A stretch of DNA of 64,000 nucleotides from Candidatus Bathyarchaeota archaeon (GTDB lineage Archaea; Thermoproteota; Bathyarchaeia; Bathyarchaeales; Bathycorpusculaceae). The position numbers and the translations under genes were made by a program. Shown here one piece after another: positions 29,732 through 50,092 of this stretch. Numbering within the stretch: the stretch's first letter is position 1; every line of letters starts with the position of its first letter. The notes below the pieces were generated by a model. It saw only the letters and a list, made by a program, of their open reading frames with translations, searched no databases and was not told where the DNA came from. The stretch lies in assembly GCA_963806535.1 (NCBI GenBank), contig CAWDYC010000004.1, positions 192,001 through 256,000 on the forward strand, in the 5' to 3' direction.

Positions 29732-31226
<1,495 letters not shown>

Positions 31227-43664: not shown

Positions 43665-44058
43665 ATGCATGCTGGGTTAGCCTTTGTTGTAGGAATTTTA
43701 GTGACCATTGCGGCGTTCCTCTTTTTCGCTGCAATTTCAGGAACAACTTATTATGGCTTAGCAATTTCGGTCGAATTAACCCTTGGAGTGACTCTCATTA
43801 TTGTCGCTTTGATTGTTGCAGCAATATTTTATGTTGGTGTCAAAGCTCAGTTTAGATAGAGTTAAAACAGGGAAAGAAGCCTTAGTCGGGTCCAAAGGTA
43901 TCGCAACGAGCGACTTGAAACCTGAAGGCGAAATACGGGTAATGGGTGAATTCTGGAAAGCTACGGCCAAAGATACCCCAATAGCAGTTGGTCAAGTCGT
44001 GGAAGTTGTCGGTATGGAAGGAATGTTACTTGTCGTAAAACCAGCCTTTACGTCTTGA
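43665..44058 (+). CDS. Short NfeD-family membrane protein (frameshifted); its 3' end is the integration site
   Basis: TM helices plus TGKEALVG.KG....L.PEGE.RV.GEFWKA...VEVVG.EG..LVV OB-fold; original tail VVKPAEQKA* is at 49157-49187. Confidence 0.88.
44030..44046 (+). repeat. attL, 17-bp direct repeat TTGTCGTAAAACCAGCC
   Basis: Identical to 49156-49172; flanking bases differ on both sides. Confidence 0.95.
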
Positions 44059-44078
44059 TAGATTTCTTGTGTTGTCAT
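44030..44078 (-). CDS. Integrase N-terminal fragment int(N): MTTQEIYQDVKAGFTT
   Basis: ATG at 44078 overlaps the RHH stop (ATGA) and runs through attL in the same register as the integrase frame at attR. Confidence 0.8.
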
Positions 44079-44209
44079 TGTTTTTTATCTTCTTTGAAGT
44101 GTTGTTCTAATGCTTGGTTGATGATGTTTGATATGTCGCCTCTTTTGCGGTTTTTTTCTCTTAATTTGTTTTCGTTTTCGGGGGTTATATTAAAAATTAT
44201 TTTTACCAT
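44075..44209 (-). CDS. Ribbon-helix-helix (CopG-like) protein, 44 aa (not in ORF track)
   Basis: MVKIIFNITPENENKLREKNRKRGDISNIINQALEQHFKEDKKQ*; beta-alpha-alpha pattern with S.II..AL. Confidence 0.75.
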   Translation of the reverse strand: MVKIIFNITPENENKLREKNRKRGDISNIINQALEQHFKEDKKQ

Positions 44210-44351
44210 TTTGTTTATTCCTTCATTTATTAGAGTTGTAATTGGATAGCTGAATATATAGATATCTTTGTTTTCTTATTATCTAAGATTGGTTTTTCCT
44301 TTGTTGTTTAATTTCTTATTTGTTGATGGTTTTTTATTTTTCAAGTTTTGT

Positions 44352-44456
44352 TAAGTCCCCTTTCTAAGATAGAAGGGGATTTAGGGGCAAGTGTGATAGC
44401 ATACTATAACCTATCTTTTATCAAGAGGTTGGGAAGGAGAGGGATGCTCTCTCCTT
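44352..44456. other. Two hairpins in the element's non-coding region; candidate replication origin
   Basis: Stems 44352-44366/44370-44383 and 44434-44443/44447-44456. Confidence 0.4.
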
Positions 44457-44650
44457 AGTTGTTTTACGTGTGAGTGTCTCTCTCGTTTTTGATGGTTCTG
44501 GGTTTGAGTTAGTTAAATTAGAATATTTTTAGTTTGTTTGTTGGTTTTATTGTATTTTTGTTAGTTTGTAAGTGTGTTTGTTTGTATCTTAATAGTTACG
44601 ATATGTTTAAATTATCATTTGATAAGTTATTAGTCAAGGGGTGATTTAGT

Positions 44651-44746
44651 TTGAAGTGTGAAAGGTGTGGTGTTGAGTTAATCGGGGAAGGTATTGTTTT
44701 CTGTTCTGGTTGTGCAGAAAAAATTTACAGTTCTTTGTCCAGTTAA
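44651..44746 (+). CDS. Tiny zinc-ribbon protein, 31 aa (not in ORF track)
   Basis: GGGGTGA RBS; MKCERCGVELIGEGIVFCSGCAEKIYSSLSS*. Confidence 0.6.
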   Translation: MKCERCGVELIGEGIVFCSGCAEKIYSSLSS

Positions 44747-44750
44747 CTTT

Positions 44751-45434
44751 TTAATTTTCTTTTTTTGTTTCTTTGTTTTTTAGTAGCTCTTCAGTGAATT
44801 CTTTTATTAATTCTTTCATTGATCTATCCCAGTTTATGGTTATTTCTTCATTGAGTTTTTCCCAATTTATAGCTGTTTTAGCGTTCAGTTTTGCTTGGTC
44901 TATTATACATTGGTTAATATCTACTTCTTTTATGATTTTGGTTGTTGCTTCTATTAGTATTTGAGTAAACCATTCGTAATTTAGCCATAGATGCAATTTT
45001 GTAAGGGTTTCTATTTCTTTAAGAGGTATATCTTTATGATTTTGAATTGTTTTTAAAAGTCTTATGAAATTGGTTTGATTCCATTTGTTGATTAGGTCTA
45101 AGATAATTAATGGATTGTTTTTTGTTTCCTTTAGTATTGCGTCTATTTTGTTTGAAAATTTTTTCATAATTTCCATTGTTTTTGTGGCTTCTATAATATC
45201 AGATTGGGCTTTGTAGAGGACTGGAATTGGATATTTTTCGCTTTCGATGTCTCTTTTTCTGTCAATTAGACCGTCTTTGGTTAGCTGTTTTAGGTGTTTG
45301 TGTAGTGTTCTTGGGCTTAGTTTGGTAGTTTTTTTTAGGTTGTTGGTTCGGTGCCATTGTCCGTCGGATAGTGCTTTCCAGATTTTTGTTTGTGTTTCGT
45401 AAAATGCTTTTGTGTTTTTGTTTGATTGTATCAT
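44751..45434 (-). CDS. Winged-helix regulator of the element
   Basis: IWKALSDG.WH....LKKTTKLSPRTLHKHLKQLTKDGLI....YP.PVLY. Confidence 0.75.
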   Translation of the reverse strand: MIQSNKNTKAFYETQTKIWKALSDGQWHRTNNLKKTTKLSPRTLHKHLKQLTKDGLIDRKRDIESEKYPIPVLYKAQSDIIEATKTMEIMKKFSNKIDAILKETKNNPLIILDLINKWNQTNFIRLLKTIQNHKDIPLKEIETLTKLHLWLNYEWFTQILIEATTKIIKEVDINQCIIDQAKLNAKTAINWEKLNEEITINWDRSMKELIKEFTEELLKNKETKKEN

Positions 45435-45532
45435 TGTTTTTTACCTTTTTGATGGATGGGTTTACACCTTTTATGAGTTTATGTAGTGTATACTTATTAA
45501 TATTTTCTCGGTTGTTTTTTCGAGGATTAAAT

Positions 45533-45769
45533 ATGGTTAAACTTACTATTGATGTTAAAAAGTTGCTTTTTTTAAAAGTGTTGGTTTTAGTTGTTTCGTC
45601 GGTTTGTTTGTTGGCGATTTCATTGGTTTTTAGTTATGATTATTTTTTTGGATTTGATATTTTGGGTTTTAATCTTAGTTTAGGTTTTTCTGGTTTGCTT
45701 TTCTGTATAGGGATTTTTGAGTTGGCGTGGGCTTTAGCTTTAGTTAGTAGATTTCGGGGGAGAGTTTAA
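45533..45769 (+). CDS. Small two-TM membrane protein of the element
   Basis: GAGG RBS, MVKLTIDVKK start, two hydrophobic helices, basic C-terminus. Confidence 0.65.
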   Translation: MVKLTIDVKKLLFLKVLVLVVSSVCLLAISLVFSYDYFFGFDILGFNLSLGFSGLLFCIGIFELAWALALVSRFRGRV

Positions 45770-45770
45770 A

Positions 45771-46430
45771 ATGGTTTCAAAATATATTGCCCTTCCTTTT
45801 ACAATTATTATTTTGCTTAGTATATTTTCGCTTTTAGGGTTAGGTTCTGGTTCATTAACTCAAAGTATGTCTGGTTCTGGTGGATATGGTTCGGGTCAGG
45901 ATGCAAAAAATCCTGGTAATTATACTGGTTGGGTAGATATTTCAGGGCGGTTAATTTTAAATTCTAACGCTGAAGTGGTTGTAAATGATTCTGGTGGTTA
46001 TTTAACATCTGTAACAATCGGCTTCAATTATGGCGGTGGTTTCAATTACTATTGGAACAATGGTACTGGCAAATATTTGTTGACTGAAGTCGGAGCAATC
46101 ACTCAGGGTAATGGTCAAGAGTCAACTGGTGCACTTCAATGGAATTTGAGCACCAGTTTAGGGTTGCTTGTGATTGTGGTTTTGATTATGGGTGTTGGTG
46201 TTGTTGTTGGCTTTCATGTTTTTGGATCAGGTGAAAATGACGTTTCTGTTGGTATGGTGCTGAAAAATACGGGTTTTCTTATGCTTTGGGCGGTTTTTAG
46301 TTCTTTATCGCTTCATTTACTGACACTAATTCCAGATGGGCTTGGTGATATTTTATATTTTGTTTTAACTGGAATGCTAACCATTGGATTAATCGACAGT
46401 ATTGGGCATCCGTCTGGGGGTTATGATTGA
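45771..46430 (+). CDS. Membrane protein with signal/anchor helix, Gly/Asn-rich ectodomain and three C-terminal TMs (candidate virion protein)
   Basis: Hydropathy pattern; several N-x-S/T sequons (NYT, NDS, NGT, NLS). Confidence 0.7.
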   Translation: MVSKYIALPFTIIILLSIFSLLGLGSGSLTQSMSGSGGYGSGQDAKNPGNYTGWVDISGRLILNSNAEVVVNDSGGYLTSVTIGFNYGGGFNYYWNNGTGKYLLTEVGAITQGNGQESTGALQWNLSTSLGLLVIVVLIMGVGVVVGFHVFGSGENDVSVGMVLKNTGFLMLWAVFSSLSLHLLTLIPDGLGDILYFVLTGMLTIGLIDSIGHPSGGYD

Positions 46431-46672
46431 TGGGTGCTTCTGTTGTTGTTGGTTCTGTAATTGTGAATAAGGTTGAAAAAGATCGTTTGGCTGTTTGTCC
46501 TTATGCTGAACAGATTGCAGTTCGTTTTGGTGTTCCCCTTTGCCTTTGTTCTTTAGGGTTTGGGGCTTGTCCGTCTCATGGTAGGCGGGCGAAATTTAAG
46601 TTTCATTTTACTGGTTTTGAAGTTGTTTGGGTTTGTGATAGGCTGGATGGGTTTCCAGATTTGGAGCGATGA
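46427..46672 (+). CDS. Small Cys-rich hypothetical protein
   Basis: VCPYA...CLCSL...CP...WVC; overlaps the upstream stop and precedes rep. Confidence 0.55.
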   Translation: MMGASVVVGSVIVNKVEKDRLAVCPYAEQIAVRFGVPLCLCSLGFGACPSHGRRAKFKFHFTGFEVVWVCDRLDGFPDLER

Positions 46673-46678
46673 TTTTGT

Positions 46679-47869
46679 TTGGGTAAGCGTGAAGAGGATG
46701 AGCTATGGTCTGGTTATGTTTCTTCTTTAGATAAGTCTGAGAGAGTTAAGGCTCGTCAGTGTAAGCATGATTTTGACGTCAAGATGTTTGGTGAGCCTGT
46801 TCATAGATTGACGGGTCAGAAACCTAAAGAGGTTAAGTTTGTTGAAGTTGTTGATGATTCTTCTGAGTCTGAGCCTGATGGTTATGCTCCCATTATTATG
46901 GGTTACCAACGTGTTGGTCATGGTAAAAAGACTAACGATAAGTGTGGTCAATTTATGGGTAATAAGGTTTGTTTGCGTACTGAGTTGCATCATAATAGTT
47001 TGGATGGTTCTATTCATGAGGGTGATGTTTTTGTTCGTAAGAAACATCATCATTGTTTTAATTGGCGTTGTCCAATTTGTTATAAATATTCTTCTGCGGT
47101 TCGTGAAGCTGGCCGTATAAAGCAACGTATTAATGAAGCTTCTAAGCGGTTTGGTGCGAAGCCTGAGCATGGGATTGTTAGTTTTTCAGAGGAAGATAGG
47201 GTTTTGTCTGTGGAAAAGTTGCTTGCTAAAGCTGTTAAGGGTCTTTATGCTCGGGGAATAACAGGTGGTTCTCTTATCCTACATTTGGAGCGTTATCGTT
47301 CTTCTGACTTTGTTCGGGGGGGCATTCGGCATATGAGTGAATGGTATTTTTCGCCTCACGTACATTTTTTGGGTTTTTTTAAAAATGAGTATGGTCGTTG
47401 TCGGAATTGTAAGTGCTATGATGAGTGGGGTTCTAAGAGTACGAAGGGGCATACTCGTCATACTAATCATGGGGGTTCTGCTTGTTTAGGCTGTTCTGGT
47501 TTTGAAGGTTTGACCAGAAGGTTGTATGAGAAGGATGGTTTAATCGTTAAGGTTATGGGTGAGCGAAAGAGTATTTTTGGGACTGCATACTATGAACTTA
47601 ATCATGCTTCGGTTAAGGTTGATAAGAAGCGTTTTCAGATTGTTCATTGGTTTGGTAATTGTAGTAAGCGTAAATTGAAGGTTGTTTTTGAAAAGAATAA
47701 GCAGGTTTGTCCTTGCTGTTTGCATGAGTTGGTTGATGCTCGTTATTTTGGTTCTATGGAGTTTGTAACTTCTTTGGATTCACCTTTTTATGAGCGTGAT
47801 ATGTGGCTTCCAATGAATGAGTATGGTCGTGATGTTTGGGTTGAGAAGGCTACGTGTGGTTCGGGTTAG
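46679..47869 (+). CDS. HUH-superfamily rolling-circle replication initiator with Zn-binding motifs
   Basis: HHCFNWRCPIC, motif 1 EHGIVS, motif 2 YFSPHVHFLG (HUH), motif 3 TAYYELNH, C-terminal CPCC. Confidence 0.82.
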   Translation: MGKREEDELWSGYVSSLDKSERVKARQCKHDFDVKMFGEPVHRLTGQKPKEVKFVEVVDDSSESEPDGYAPIIMGYQRVGHGKKTNDKCGQFMGNKVCLRTELHHNSLDGSIHEGDVFVRKKHHHCFNWRCPICYKYSSAVREAGRIKQRINEASKRFGAKPEHGIVSFSEEDRVLSVEKLLAKAVKGLYARGITGGSLILHLERYRSSDFVRGGIRHMSEWYFSPHVHFLGFFKNEYGRCRNCKCYDEWGSKSTKGHTRHTNHGGSACLGCSGFEGLTRRLYEKDGLIVKVMGERKSIFGTAYYELNHASVKVDKKRFQIVHWFGNCSKRKLKVVFEKNKQVCPCCLHELVDARYFGSMEFVTSLDSPFYERDMWLPMNEYGRDVWVEKATCGSG

Positions 47870-47881
47870 TGGTAACTCTGA

Positions 47882-48163
47882 ATGCTAATGGAGTGTTATT
47901 TGATTATGAAGTATGAAACTTTGAGGAGAATTGAAAAAAATGGTGTTTATATTGCTGAATTTGACCCCAAGGTTCATTGTAAATATAACCCGAATGTTTT
48001 ATGCATTAGATTATATCTTGGTAAGTTTGAGTGTTCTGGTTTTGTTGATAATAAGAAACAGTTTAAGGAAAAACATGAAATGGAAATTGTTTTTTGGCAT
48101 TTGTTTTGTGGTGGTGTTGATGGGTTTTTTGGTTCATTGGTGTTCATATTTATTTGTGTTTAA
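47882..48163 (+). CDS. Hypothetical protein of the element
   Basis: ORF directly after rep; the C-terminal part overlaps a second hydrophobic reading frame. Confidence 0.45.
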   Translation: MLMECYLIMKYETLRRIEKNGVYIAEFDPKVHCKYNPNVLCIRLYLGKFECSGFVDNKKQFKEKHEMEIVFWHLFCGGVDGFFGSLVFIFICV

Positions 48164-48181
48164 ATTGTTTTTATGTTTTGC

Positions 48182-49172
48182 TTATTTTCTTATTCTGAAG
48201 TATTGGTATCCGTCTGCTTCTGTTATTTTCTGGTAGCCTGCGTCTGATAGTTCTATGATGCGTTTTCCTGTGTTTGGTTCTCCTAATTTTACTGCTTCGG
48301 TTTTGTATTCTTCTGGTTCGTCTAAGTTTATGCTTCTTATGTAGCCCAATGTTGTTTCAAGTTGTTTGTGTCTCATAAATCTCATGGTGGCTATTGGGTC
48401 GTGTTTGCCTTCGTGTTTGTAGAATTGTTCTCCTGCGTAGTTTCTTAGGTTTTTTAGGTTTATTAGGTCTAATTCGGGTTTGCATAGTTTTTTTGCTATT
48501 TTTCGTCTGGCTTGTCGCCATGCTTCGCCTTGTGCTTTTGCTTCTGGAAATGGTTGTTCTTTGTTTGTTGTTTTTGATAGGTAAATTCTGAGCATTTCTG
48601 CGGTTTCTGATTTTAGTTTATAGCTTCCGTTGTTGTGTCCTTTTGTGCCTGTTACGGTTAGTTTTCCTTCTTCTTTGTCTATCATTGTTCCTTTTATTCT
48701 GTGTAGTTCTTCGGGTTCTATTGCGGTTTGTGATAGGGTTGTGAATATTGCGGTGTATTTGGTTGATGCCGTGTTTATGATTAGATTCACGTTTTCTTTT
48801 GATGGGATTAGTGGTATTGGGGCTTCGTATTCCATTTTTGGCTTGTCGAATGGGATTTGGTTTTGTTCGCAAAATACGCTGTAATGTTCTAAGATTCTCT
48901 TTTTATAGCCGTTGCTTAGTGTTTTGTTTTTCATGTCGGGTCTTGAGCCTTTTAGCTGTGTTAGAATGTAGAGAAGTGTTTTTGTGCTGTCGAATAGATT
49001 GCAGTTGTCTGCTAATACTGCGAAACTGCTTTGATATTTTGAGATGGTTTGTTGGCTTCTGCCTTTTAGTTTGACTGCTTCGATTGTGTTTTCGATTGCT
49101 GTTTTGGTTCTTTCGTCTAATGGTTTTCTGGCTACTTGTGCGAAATAATGGCGGGTTGTCGTAAAACCAGCC
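48182..49172 (-). CDS. Tyrosine recombinase/integrase, large C-terminal fragment int(C)
   Basis: GTKG, KNLRNY, MRHKQLETTLGY catalytic motifs; frame is open for 79 codons upstream of Met 48934, up to attR, with no ATG/GTG/TTG. Confidence 0.9.
49156..49172 (+). repeat. attR, 17-bp direct repeat TTGTCGTAAAACCAGCC
   Basis: Identical to 44030-44046. Confidence 0.95.
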
Positions 49173-49222
49173 GAGCAAAAAGCTTAATTCTCCAAACTAC
49201 CGAATACCAATAGAAGGTGTAA

Positions 49223-50092
49223 ATGTTGTCAGAAGTTTTAGCTCCAGTAGTAGGATTCATAGGAATCGTAATTGCTCTTTTTCTGTTAAGCGGTATACGC
49301 GTGCTCAGAGAATGGGAGCGAATGCCCGTTTTAAGACTTGGACGCTATGTCGGTTTAAAAGGTCCTGGAATAATCTATCTTGTTCCATTAATTGACAGAG
49401 CACCACTAAAAATCTCAACGAGATTAGACACTATCCAATTCCGCACAGAATCAACCTTAACCAAAGACAACGTTCCGGTAAATGTTGATTCAGTATTATA
49501 CATGAAACCTGTGGATTTGGAAAAGGCTGTGTTGGCCGTTGAAAATTACTATCAAGCGACTCAATTAGCTTCACAAACGACCTTGCGGGAAGTCATCGGC
49601 AAAGTAAGTCTCAACGAGTTGCTAGCTGAACGGGAAAAAGTTGGAGCGCGCCTGCGAGAAATCATCGATGAAAAAACTGAGTCATGGGGAATCAAAGTTA
49701 CATCCGTTGAAGTCCGAGACGTTATCATCCCTGCCAACCTTCAAGACGCTATGAGCCGCCAAGCACAAGCTGAACGAGAACGAATTGCAAGAGTAACCTT
49801 AGCCACAGCTGAGTTCGAAGCATCGGCAAAAATGATTGAGGCAGCAAAAATGTATGAGGCAAGTCCAGAAGGCTTGAGACTTAGATGGATGAACATACTC
49901 TATGAGTTGGGTCAGCAATCTCAAACAAATACGATAATGTTGGTGCCTGCATCTATGCCCGAGGCAGGTTGGCCGCCAATCGGCACTTACGGCTTCAAAG
50001 ACCTAACCACGGCACAACAAGCTCAAGCGGCAAAGAAGAAGCCATTGGTGAATCAAGAGTCGCCCCCACAAACATCTGAACAACCAGAGTAA
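49223..50092 (+). CDS. Stomatin/SPFH (band 7, slipin) protein
   Basis: RLGRY...GPG, LTKDNVPVNVD, QTTLREVIG, WGIKVTSVEVRDV, AMSRQAQAERER. Confidence 0.95.
   Translation: MLSEVLAPVVGFIGIVIALFLLSGIRVLREWERMPVLRLGRYVGLKGPGIIYLVPLIDRAPLKISTRLDTIQFRTESTLTKDNVPVNVDSVLYMKPVDLEKAVLAVENYYQATQLASQTTLREVIGKVSLNELLAEREKVGARLREIIDEKTESWGIKVTSVEVRDVIIPANLQDAMSRQAQAERERIARVTLATAEFEASAKMIEAAKMYEASPEGLRLRWMNILYELGQQSQTNTIMLVPASMPEAGWPPIGTYGFKDLTTAQQAQAAKKKPLVNQESPPQTSEQPE

Follow-up and report, generated by a model that had tools for sequence, protein, structure and literature searches.

A probable plasmid-like rolling-circle element with a self-splitting integrase in a Candidatus Bathyarchaeota genome

Boundaries of the element and topology of its integrase

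We analysed 64,000 nucleotides (nt) of a Candidatus Bathyarchaeota genome (assembly GCA_963806535.1, contig CAWDYC010000004.1, positions 192,001 to 256,000; hereafter the window), in which a small mobile element of 5,126 bp is integrated at positions 44047-49172. Its nine genes encode a predicted rolling-circle replication initiator (Rep), a tyrosine integrase (Int), two hydrophobic proteins with transmembrane segments (TM1 and TM2) and five further proteins, several of them putative regulators. The ends of the element are marked by a 17-bp direct repeat, TTGTCGTAAAACCAGCC, found at 44030-44046 (attL) and 49156-49172 (attR). The two copies are identical (17/17), and the pair was identified as the longest direct repeat flanking the rep and int genes. 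The attL copy lies within the last codons of the host nfeD gene (43813-44058). The attR copy forms part of the integrase reading frame; beyond it come the original 3' end of nfeD and an SPFH/stomatin gene (49223-50092). Both flanking host genes were assigned by Pfam (NfeD on the left, E 6.5e-18; Band_7 for the SPFH/stomatin gene on the right, E 6.4e-34). A preliminary description of this DNA had placed the element at 44047-48180. Its left end is exact, 44047 being the first base of the element, whereas its right end stops short of the true end at 49172; the integrase gene and both att repeats had been overlooked in its gene list.

The left flank was searched in 60 other genomes of the genus, of which 36 gave a match, and the 11 best loci were examined. 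In all 11 congeners the flanks are contiguous, with a single att-like copy and no insert, and therefore we conclude that the insertion is recent. Through the insertion, nfeD has exchanged its last four codons for element sequence and has become separated from the stomatin gene. For the host, this means that the last residues of the NfeD-domain protein are altered and that 5.1 kb now lie between two genes that are adjacent in 11 of the 11 relatives examined. If the nfeD-stomatin pair is co-transcribed, the element may disturb expression of the stomatin gene.

The tyrosine integrase spans 48182-49172 on the minus strand, attR included, and lacks its start in the integrated form. The larger part, int(C) (48182-49155, minus strand), belongs to a frame that is open from 48182 to 49183 through attR and contains no ATG, GTG or TTG before residue 84. 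The start is found at the other end of the element, in an int(N) stub (44047-44078, minus strand) that consists of the ATG (44078-44076) and the first 11 integrase codons and that continues into att only in the circular form. Circularization in silico yields an integrase open reading frame (ORF) of 340 amino acids (aa), with the ATG 11 codons upstream of att and with attP forming integrase codons 12-17. This ATG overlaps the stop codon of a 44-aa ORF described below (ATGA). The integrase was matched by Pfam Phage_integrase (PF00589; E 7.7e-5 and 1.3e-4), by a PHROG integrase family (E 2.2e-5) and by NCBIfam XerA (E 4.5e-13), all of these family matches being below the curated cut-offs.

Insertion at the 3' end of nfeD severs int from its start and promoter, which is the "suicidal" topology of SSV-type integrases. 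In SSV-type systems, integration cuts int, and excision requires an intact copy in trans (PMC8371274). Those systems, which include fuselloviruses and the pTN3 and pT26-2 plasmids, likewise have attP within int, an int split into int(N) and int(C) and excision in trans, and the 5.7-kb integrative satellite plasmid pSSVi is similar to our element in size and lifestyle (PMC8371274). According to the same paper, the known suicidal integrases of SSV, pTN3-like and pT26-2-like elements are marked by PF16795 (Phage_integr_3). In the family of elements to which ours belongs (the Rep-Int family, see below) the integrases are recognized instead by PF00589 or XerA-like models: none of the ten family integrases scanned matched PF16795 at E≤1, while all ten matched PF00589 (E 5e-22 to 1e-2). 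Further differences concern the att sequences, which measure 16-36 bp in the Rep-Int family versus 40-50 bp in SSV-type systems, the int(N) part, which comprises only about 11 codons here, and replication, which would rely on an HUH Rep here and not on a primase-helicase. Since attP lies inside int but PF16795 is absent, we propose that the enzyme works like a suicidal integrase, and we do not place it in that clade. Suicidal integration has been attributed to hyperthermophiles (PMC8371274).

The replication initiator and the strand composition

Rep (46679-47869, plus strand) is a 396-aa protein with three Cys clusters that is most likely a rolling-circle initiator of the HUH superfamily, akin to SNJ1 RepA, as judged from its motifs and from profile comparison. 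The motifs from which the preliminary description had derived a zinc-finger HUH Rep related to SNJ1 RepA are all in place, namely HHHC...CPIC (residues 122-134), SPHVH (225-229) and YYELNH (304-309). Across 37 aligned sequences, the invariant residues comprise an N-terminal Cys/His cluster (C89, C98, H104, C126, C131 and C134), H202, the HUH pair H227/H229, a second Cys cluster (C241, C244 and C272) and, toward the C-terminus, R296, T302, Y305, L307, H309 and the pair C344/C347. Both His residues of the HUH motif H227-V-H229 occur in 37/37 homologues and align to the PHxH of SNJ1 RepA. Y305, invariant within T-A-x-Y-x-L-x-H, corresponds to the equally invariant Y305/H309 in the SNJ1 RepA alignment.

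Comparison of the 37-sequence Rep profile with a 23-sequence profile of SNJ1 RepA (SNJ1 RepA and 22 of the 32 homologues gathered) by hhalign gave a probability of 97.8% (E 1e-12) over 164 columns, which substantiates the claimed relationship. Identity over these columns is about 20%, and the zinc, EH-x-V-x-S-x-P, HUH and tyrosine motifs are all colinear. Against the single SNJ1 RepA sequence the Rep profile reached 38.6% (E 3.2e-4), and tblastn between the two proteins found nothing. The shared motifs can be written as C-x3-4-C-P-x-C (zinc), (E/H)H-x-V-x-S-x-P, P-H-x-H-x-(L/I)-G (HUH) and Y-x-L-(N/S)-H (tyrosine). Unlike SNJ1 RepA, the Rep family carries two extra Cys clusters, one (C241/C244/C272) as an insertion within the HUH domain and the other (C344/C347) C-terminal. 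The replicons also differ: SNJ1 is a 16.5-kb capsid-forming double-stranded DNA haloarchaeal sphaerolipovirus without strand skew (G+T 49%), whereas the element measures 5.1 kb and has no capsid genes.

Rep matched no Pfam family at E≤1 and no NCBIfam or PADLOC model, and its two PHROG matches are at chance level (E 0.04 and 0.13). Of its 73 homologues in a 90%-clustered collection none has a functional name, and the few that carry an organism name come from Bathyarchaeia/Bathyarchaeota metagenome-assembled genomes (MAGs) and from one subsurface metagenome. The Rep profile recruited 1,814 clusters (50% identity) at E≤1e-3, of which 402 pass E≤1e-30. Pfam Rep_1 was weakly matched by three of the 37 members (best E 1.7e-4), and a search of the profile against PDB sequences returned chance-level matches only (E≥0.32). 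Searches of Rep by tblastn against collections of phages (50,697 records) and plasmids gave no match, and of 26 pattern matches to the profile in IMG/VR (2.9 million contigs) none was confirmed. An AlphaFold2 model of Rep (predicted local distance difference test, pLDDT, 78; predicted template modelling score, pTM, 0.74) was compared with 48,161 chains by VIA-align. HUH nucleases made up nine of the 11 best matches, at Z 3.6-4.8 only, and included SIRV1 ORF119, Vientovirus Rep, MVM NS1, RepB of pMV158, AAV5 Rep, nanovirus Rep and bocavirus NS1. A search of BFVD with the same model gave 15 matches at E≤1e-3, mostly unnamed; a microvirus replication initiator ranked 18th (E 1.7e-3), and a parvovirus NS protein was also within the top 50.

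The element is further set apart by its base composition. Its plus strand contains 20.2% A, 11.7% C, 24.1% G and 44.1% T (G+T 68%), as compared with 29.9% A, 20.4% C, 20.4% G and 29.4% T in the source genome. Positions 44001-49250 are the sole strongly G+T-biased part of the window (GC skew +0.29 to +0.40, AT skew -0.22 to -0.51). The extreme plus-strand skew reported in the preliminary description holds at the scale of the whole 2.95-Mb genome, where the element locus is the most deviant of 5,856 windows of 2 kb (0.195 from 0.5, standard deviation 0.034). Plus-strand G+T at codon position 3 (GT3) is 0.66-0.91 in all nine genes, irrespective of the coding strand, and 0.23-0.53 in five flanking host genes. 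Third positions of rep contain 4% C and 59% T, and those of the minus-strand genes 2-7% G. Because the third-position bias is found on both coding strands, we consider it to be mutational and not a consequence of protein composition.

Among 21 related loci, GT3 ranges from 0.36 to 0.89 for Rep and from 0.09 to 0.42 for Int, and Int lies on the strand opposite Rep in 18 of the 18 loci that have both genes. The orientation of the skew follows the Rep strand in these loci, and therefore we regard the bias as a family trait that is fading in some copies. Its simplest cause would be deamination of a displaced, single-stranded plus strand, which is in line with the earlier remark that a T/G-rich plus strand fits a replicon spending time single-stranded. 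The heavy strand of vertebrate mitochondrial DNA is G+T-rich as well, which is ascribed to deamination while asymmetric replication keeps this strand displaced in single-stranded form; it belongs to an unrelated replicon, and the analogy covers the skew mechanism only. For comparison, G+T amounts to 55.1% in M13, 54.5% in phiX174, 49.2% in SNJ1 and 48.5% in HRPV-1.

Two other places in the source genome (G000) were noted in this context. A second, decayed Rep copy is located at G000:C6:90770-91619 (L002, L003, L053), with 44-48% identity in two frames. An integrase lies about 3 kb away, and a clear att repeat was not found there; this integrase is still strongly skewed (GT3 0.12), while the Rep remnant is not (0.49). 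The second most skewed island of the genome, G000:C3:481501-485500 (L068; deviation 0.183), was considered as another such element and rejected, since it lacks a Rep gene and carries broken type I restriction genes: HsdR-like frames lie there in three pieces beside a methylase-like ORF.

Related elements, membrane genes and remaining features

The Rep profile matched 31 of 401 sampled genomes of the class (source genome included), all of which belong to one order. By family within this order, and leaving the source genome aside, Rep was found in 24/103, 5/18 and 1/11 genomes, and many copies carry stops or are fragments. We extracted 20 loci with their flanks and processed 19 of them for direct repeats. 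Every one of the 20 loci has Rep, and 19 have an integrase as well, the exception being L035, which ends at a contig edge. Counterparts of the ribbon-helix-helix (RHH)-like protein and of the winged helix-turn-helix (wHTH) protein described below were found in one locus each, whereas TM1, TM2, the 81-aa and 93-aa proteins and the small Zn-ribbon ORF were found in none of the 20.

A direct repeat of 16-36 bp, located beside the 5' end of int and on the far side of Rep, delimits 14 of the 19 loci. Thirteen of the delimited elements measure 4,053-6,820 bp and one 10,512 bp, and all contain Rep and an integrase on the opposite strand. In the circular form, the integrase would start upstream of att in ten of the 14 and 33-59 nt downstream of it in the other four. 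Several delimited elements are inserted in tRNA-like sequences, and one and the same att is used by six. The att core common to these six (L038, L039, L040, L041, L043 and L050, from six genomes) is …GATGATGT[CA]GCCGTCCCAG. The integrase reads through att in two of them and starts just downstream in four, both designs occurring at one target.

The gene modules are mosaic, each of three being shared with a different locus (RHH with L042, 79%; Int with L051, 73%; Rep with L054, 87%). Pairwise comparisons gave 68% identity for the RHH-like homologue in L042, which occupies the same position, 65% for Int of L051 and 86% for Rep of L054. L054, the one locus that a scan of metagenomes yielded, is a metagenome contig whose element lies at the end of a permease gene and carries, by reading of its ORFs, a different membrane protein, a 544-aa protein and a DNA methylase-like pair. 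A 5,024-bp relative in L042 (6068-11109), bounded by an 18-bp repeat, sits inside a SAM-methyltransferase-like host gene that it apparently truncates, and the Rep of this locus has a hydrophobic N-terminal extension of roughly 100 aa.

We also compared the cargo of the related elements with protein family databases. Of 20 larger non-core proteins, 12 had Pfam matches and eight had none. The matches comprise HEPN, radical SAM with DUF3463, DUF4365-TPR, CAP12/Pycsar-type TIR, GmrSD, FRG, AbiJ, a DpnII/MboI endonuclease and a CcdA-like antitoxin. PADLOC assigned the radical-SAM protein to the prokaryotic viperins (pVip, E 1.4e-22) and the TIR protein to PDC-S35. A multi-TM protein (at least 100 aa and at least two TM segments) is predicted in seven of the 14 delimited elements and absent in seven, and L039, L041 and L052 contain none at all; the TM count is a crude hydropathy measure and is inflated by T-rich DNA. 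Judged by gene content, the family consists of small replicons built on Rep and Int, with a slot for variable cargo, much of the cargo being predicted defence genes. We found no description of it in the full-text literature on Bathyarchaeia mobile elements and viruses, a coverage that leaves out supplements and subscription journals. A survey of Bathyarchaeia viruses (PMC10848311) has neither "rolling" nor "HUH" in its text.

The two membrane ORFs that the preliminary description had reported as co-oriented with rep, one of them with a sequon-bearing ectodomain, are indeed located upstream of rep. TM1 (45533-45769, plus strand; 78 aa) has two hydrophobic segments and is the first gene of the rep operon. 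It is the least certain gene, its position being its sole support; hydrophobic ORFs arise by chance in T-rich DNA. TM2 (45771-46430, plus strand) encodes a membrane protein of 219 aa that is predicted to start with an N-terminal helix, to continue with a beta-rich ectodomain of Gly/Asn/Ser composition that bears four N-x-S/T sequons (N50, N72, N97 and N125), and to end in three C-terminal TM helices. No homologue of either protein was detected in the 20 related Rep loci or in L054, nor one of TM2 in the 400 other genomes of the order. TM2 is a real gene, with a single homologue, P0075, among 5.8 billion proteins (36% identity, also 219 aa). TM1 and TM2 had no Pfam, NCBIfam or PADLOC matches. 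The AlphaFold2 model of TM2, built on a two-sequence alignment, was too poor for a fold search (pLDDT 42). In the ESM Atlas, the clusters nearest to TM2 are mostly viral hypothetical proteins, at 0.86-0.87 and hence under the tool's 0.9 line.

The RHH, wHTH and Zn-ribbon ORFs listed in the preliminary description are present as well. The 44-aa protein (44075-44209, minus strand), which would be translationally coupled to int in the circle, resembles a ribbon-helix-helix protein by sequence pattern alone; it had no Pfam match and one weak PHROG match of unknown function (E 0.001). The wHTH gene (44751-45434, minus strand) is divergent from the rep operon and encodes a 227-aa putative winged-helix DNA-binding protein, with matches to Pfam HxlR/HTH_24/MarR/ArsR (E 2e-4 to 1e-3) and to a Csa3-type HTH of PADLOC (1e-5). 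Its homologue in L052 is 36% identical and is one of the 188-223-aa proteins that occupy the same divergent position in six other delimited elements. The 98-bp region between wHTH and the TM1-rep operon (45435-45532) contains A/T-rich TATA-like stretches and is probably the regulatory hub of the element. The CxxC...CxxC zinc-ribbon ORF (44651-44746, plus strand) comprises 31 codons with a TTG start and is an uncertain gene; longer Zn-ribbon proteins are encoded downstream of Rep in L042 and L054.

Directly upstream of rep, a Cys-rich 81-aa protein (46427-46672, plus strand), whose start overlaps the stop of TM2, has a weak match to Zn_Ribbon_Prim (E 0.023), and Rep is likewise preceded by a Cys-rich ORF (91-121 aa) in L050 and L051. 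The last gene of the rep operon (47882-48163, plus strand) encodes a 93-aa protein with a hydrophobic C-terminus. It had no family match in Pfam, NCBIfam or PADLOC, and its first ~10 codons are common to the ORF after Rep in L054. PHROGs gave only weak matches of unknown function for some members of the set comprising Rep, TM1, TM2 and the 81-aa and 93-aa proteins.

The candidate replication origin (double-strand, single-strand or both) is a hairpin cluster at 44352-44456 on the plus strand, with stable hairpins at 44352-44383 and 44434-44456, within a non-coding region of 441 bp (44210-44650). Folded as single-stranded DNA (ssDNA), it reaches z -3.9 over 151 nt (none of 200 shuffles as stable) and z -4.8 over 451 nt. 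Since blastn among four related elements found no conservation outside genes, the region is put forward as a candidate origin only. Rfam found nothing in the element, nor did a tRNA scan of the window.

Nature of the element and rival explanations

We regard it as very probable that the locus is a rolling-circle episome in its integrated state, with an integrase that splits its own gene. More specifically, we propose, with a probability of roughly 0.68, that it is an integrative rolling-circle plasmid-like element, i.e., a "cryptic integrated element", with orphan membrane cargo, and that the window contains the integrated copy of a 5,126-bp circle. The features by which cryptic integrated elements are recognized are found together here: an integrase and a replication gene, att flanks and no capsid, packaging or conjugation genes. 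The preliminary description had already proposed an integrated rolling-circle element of about 5 kb without recognizable capsid, packaging ATPase or conjugation gene. The length of 5,126 bp, the att repeats, the empty sites in relatives and the SNJ1 RepA-like Rep support this part of it, as does the absence of any Walker A motif in the six frames of the element and of any structural PHROG match among its proteins.

Small, integrase-bearing cryptic elements without virus or conjugation hallmarks have been described in Thaumarchaeota (Krupovic et al. 2019, PMC6563490). Their att repeats have a median length of 17 bp, they insert in the 3'-distal part of protein-coding genes, replacing the stop codon, and one of them, NitAQ6f-E2, carries an SNJ1-type rolling-circle Rep (PMC6563490). 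The likeness to our element thus lies in small size, integrase, short att, insertion at the 3' end of a gene and, for one of them, an SNJ1-like Rep. The thaumarchaeal elements differ in belonging to another host class, and here the Rep-Int pair defines a whole family (31/401 genomes); split integrases, extreme strand bias and defence cargo, all present here, are not mentioned for them in the passages of PMC6563490 consulted.

According to the reading as a plasmid-like element, the origin would lie in the hairpin-rich stretch 44210-44650, where Rep would nick the G+T-rich plus strand of the circle. Once displaced, this strand would remain ssDNA until copied by host enzymes, and over time deamination would strip C from it. 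Full-length integrase would be made from circles only, and an integrated copy would leave only if a free or related copy supplied the integrase. The int and rep operons would be regulated by the RHH and wHTH proteins. TM1 and TM2 would represent lineage-specific cargo in a slot that usually holds defence genes in this family. It is a guess, and one we would sooner bet against than on, that their place of action is the host membrane, with a role in exclusion or defence and not in particle building.

Several observations weigh against a plasmid-like element. The structural likeness between the Rep model and HUH nucleases (Z 3.6-4.8) is weak by the standard of the tool (Z<8), and a Foldseek search of PDB with the model gave no match at E≤1e-3. 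Among four small Rep-bearing MAG contigs no free circular form was seen: they lack terminal overlaps, and all of them look like fragments of integrated copies. The skew exceeds that of ssDNA phages that package the plus strand, and hence a plasmid model must invoke a long-lived single-stranded intermediate. TM1 and TM2 lie within the rep operon, with stops and starts abutting or overlapping, and their GT3 (0.70-0.73) is like that of the core genes, which argues for long-term residents and not for a recent pickup. Furthermore, P0075 is encoded on a contig of 5,311 bp, about the size of the element, and the membrane parts of the two proteins are conserved while the ectodomains diverge, a pattern that would also suit a surface or virion protein.

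These points bear on the question of whether the locus is the provirus of a minimal virus, a satellite or a vesicle-borne element that would exit from the cell in a membrane wrapping or by extrusion through the membrane. In such an element, TM2 would serve as surface protein, TM1 and the 93-aa protein as components of membrane or coat, and the plus strand would be packaged as ssDNA; missing functions may come from a helper virus, as SSV provides for pSSVi or filamentous phages for their satellites. Pleolipoviridae (HRPV-1) and Inoviridae (M13) likewise have genomes of 5-7 kb, an HUH Rep and small hydrophobic proteins, as well as a signal-peptide protein with a C-terminal anchor and, in M13, a T-rich packaged strand. 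Co-transcription of the membrane genes with rep and the skew they share, the layout of TM2 (a sequon-rich ectodomain between a signal-like helix and a C-terminal anchor), the retention of this anchor beside a diverged ectodomain in its sole homologue and the viral ESM Atlas neighbours of TM2, although under the 0.9 line, would all agree with a virus, as would a skew above that of M13 and phiX174 and the multi-TM proteins, although unrelated, in half of the delimited relatives. The skew is, however, far stronger than in these viruses (68% G+T here versus 55% in M13 and 48.5% in HRPV-1), and neither the pleolipoviral core (VP3-like membrane protein, VP4-like spike and VP8-like NTPase) nor the pI/Zot-type ATPase and major coat protein of inoviruses were found in the element, although a satellite could lack both of the latter. 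By tblastn, the nine element proteins matched HRPV-1, M13, phiX174 and SNJ1 only at E>0.1, and HRPV-1 only at E>5.

The comparison with relatives speaks against a virus. The preliminary description had based its viral reading on the membrane ORFs and had named their absence from related elements as evidence to the contrary, and TM1 and TM2 are absent from 20/20 related loci and from L054, and TM2 from 400/400 other genomes of the order. Half of the delimited elements do without a multi-TM protein of at least 100 aa, three of them without any, and relatives carry defence genes as cargo, not structural genes. No Rep relative was found among the 2.9 million IMG/VR contigs or the 50,697 phage records, and a search for spacer-like matches (at least 22 nt) to the element elsewhere in the source genome was negative. 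A viral or satellite status therefore is possible but unsupported, and we consider a provirus or vesicle-borne element unlikely. We give still less credence to its boldest form, a minimal capsidless archaeal ssDNA virus or satellite whose plus strand would exit in or through a TM2-decorated membrane and whose skew would be the scar of a packaged ssDNA life. Were this improbable case true, the wider Rep-Int family could be the plasmid-like pool from which the virus arose, or the reverse.

An inert relic would result if integration had destroyed the element's own int and left a fixed island with decaying or co-opted genes. The lack of a start codon in the integrated int agrees with this, as do the many family copies with stops or fragmentation, including the split second Rep on C6 of the same genome, and the loss of skew in several relatives. 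All nine ORFs of the element are intact, however, its att copies are identical (17/17), no member of the family surpasses it in skew, and the empty site in 11/11 congeners examined indicates a recent insertion. Additionally, elements with a split integrase can be excised if the enzyme is provided by a related element (PMC8371274). We therefore regard a relic as distinctly improbable.

Transposition in the manner of IS91, by an HUH transposase, is an explanation that we hardly credit. Wang et al. in 2018 are said to have reported a relationship between SNJ1 RepA, to which Rep is homologous, and IS91 transposases, and Pfam Zn_Tnp_IS91 (PF14319) is touched by one of the 37 family members (E 0.61). 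Y2_Tnp (PF04986) was not among the 25 Pfam families listed for the 37 Rep members; a Y2_Tnp scan of the genome was likewise silent, which carries little weight, since control genomes were silent too. A direct repeat of host sequence overlaps int, and the same architecture recurs at tRNA genes or other fixed sites in 14 elements, which argues for site-specific recombination and not for transposition. Also, the 2.9-Mb genome contains only one intact and one decayed copy.

As a plasmid-like integrative element, the locus would give a predicted function and a context to a large unnamed Rep family (1,814 clusters at 50% identity), that of rolling-circle initiators of small integrative elements, whose hosts are widespread and mostly uncultured sediment archaea. 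Self-splitting integrases that lack PF16795 suggest that split-gene integration may be broader, or may have evolved repeatedly, as compared with the account in PMC8371274. The carriage of viperin-like, TIR, HEPN, AbiJ and restriction enzyme genes by such tiny elements suggests a route by which immunity genes could move among these archaea. Further, the skew, graded from extreme to absent within the family, could serve as a natural series for single-strand DNA damage and for decay after integration. Together, Rep, origin, integrase and att represent a candidate toolkit of shuttle or integration vectors for archaea that lack a genetic system.

Elsewhere in the window, in which no other Rfam family was over threshold and ARAGORN found no tRNA, a complete archaeal 16S rRNA gene is located at 29732-31226 on the plus strand (Rfam RF01959, 1,488 bits). 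It appears to be unlinked to any 23S gene.

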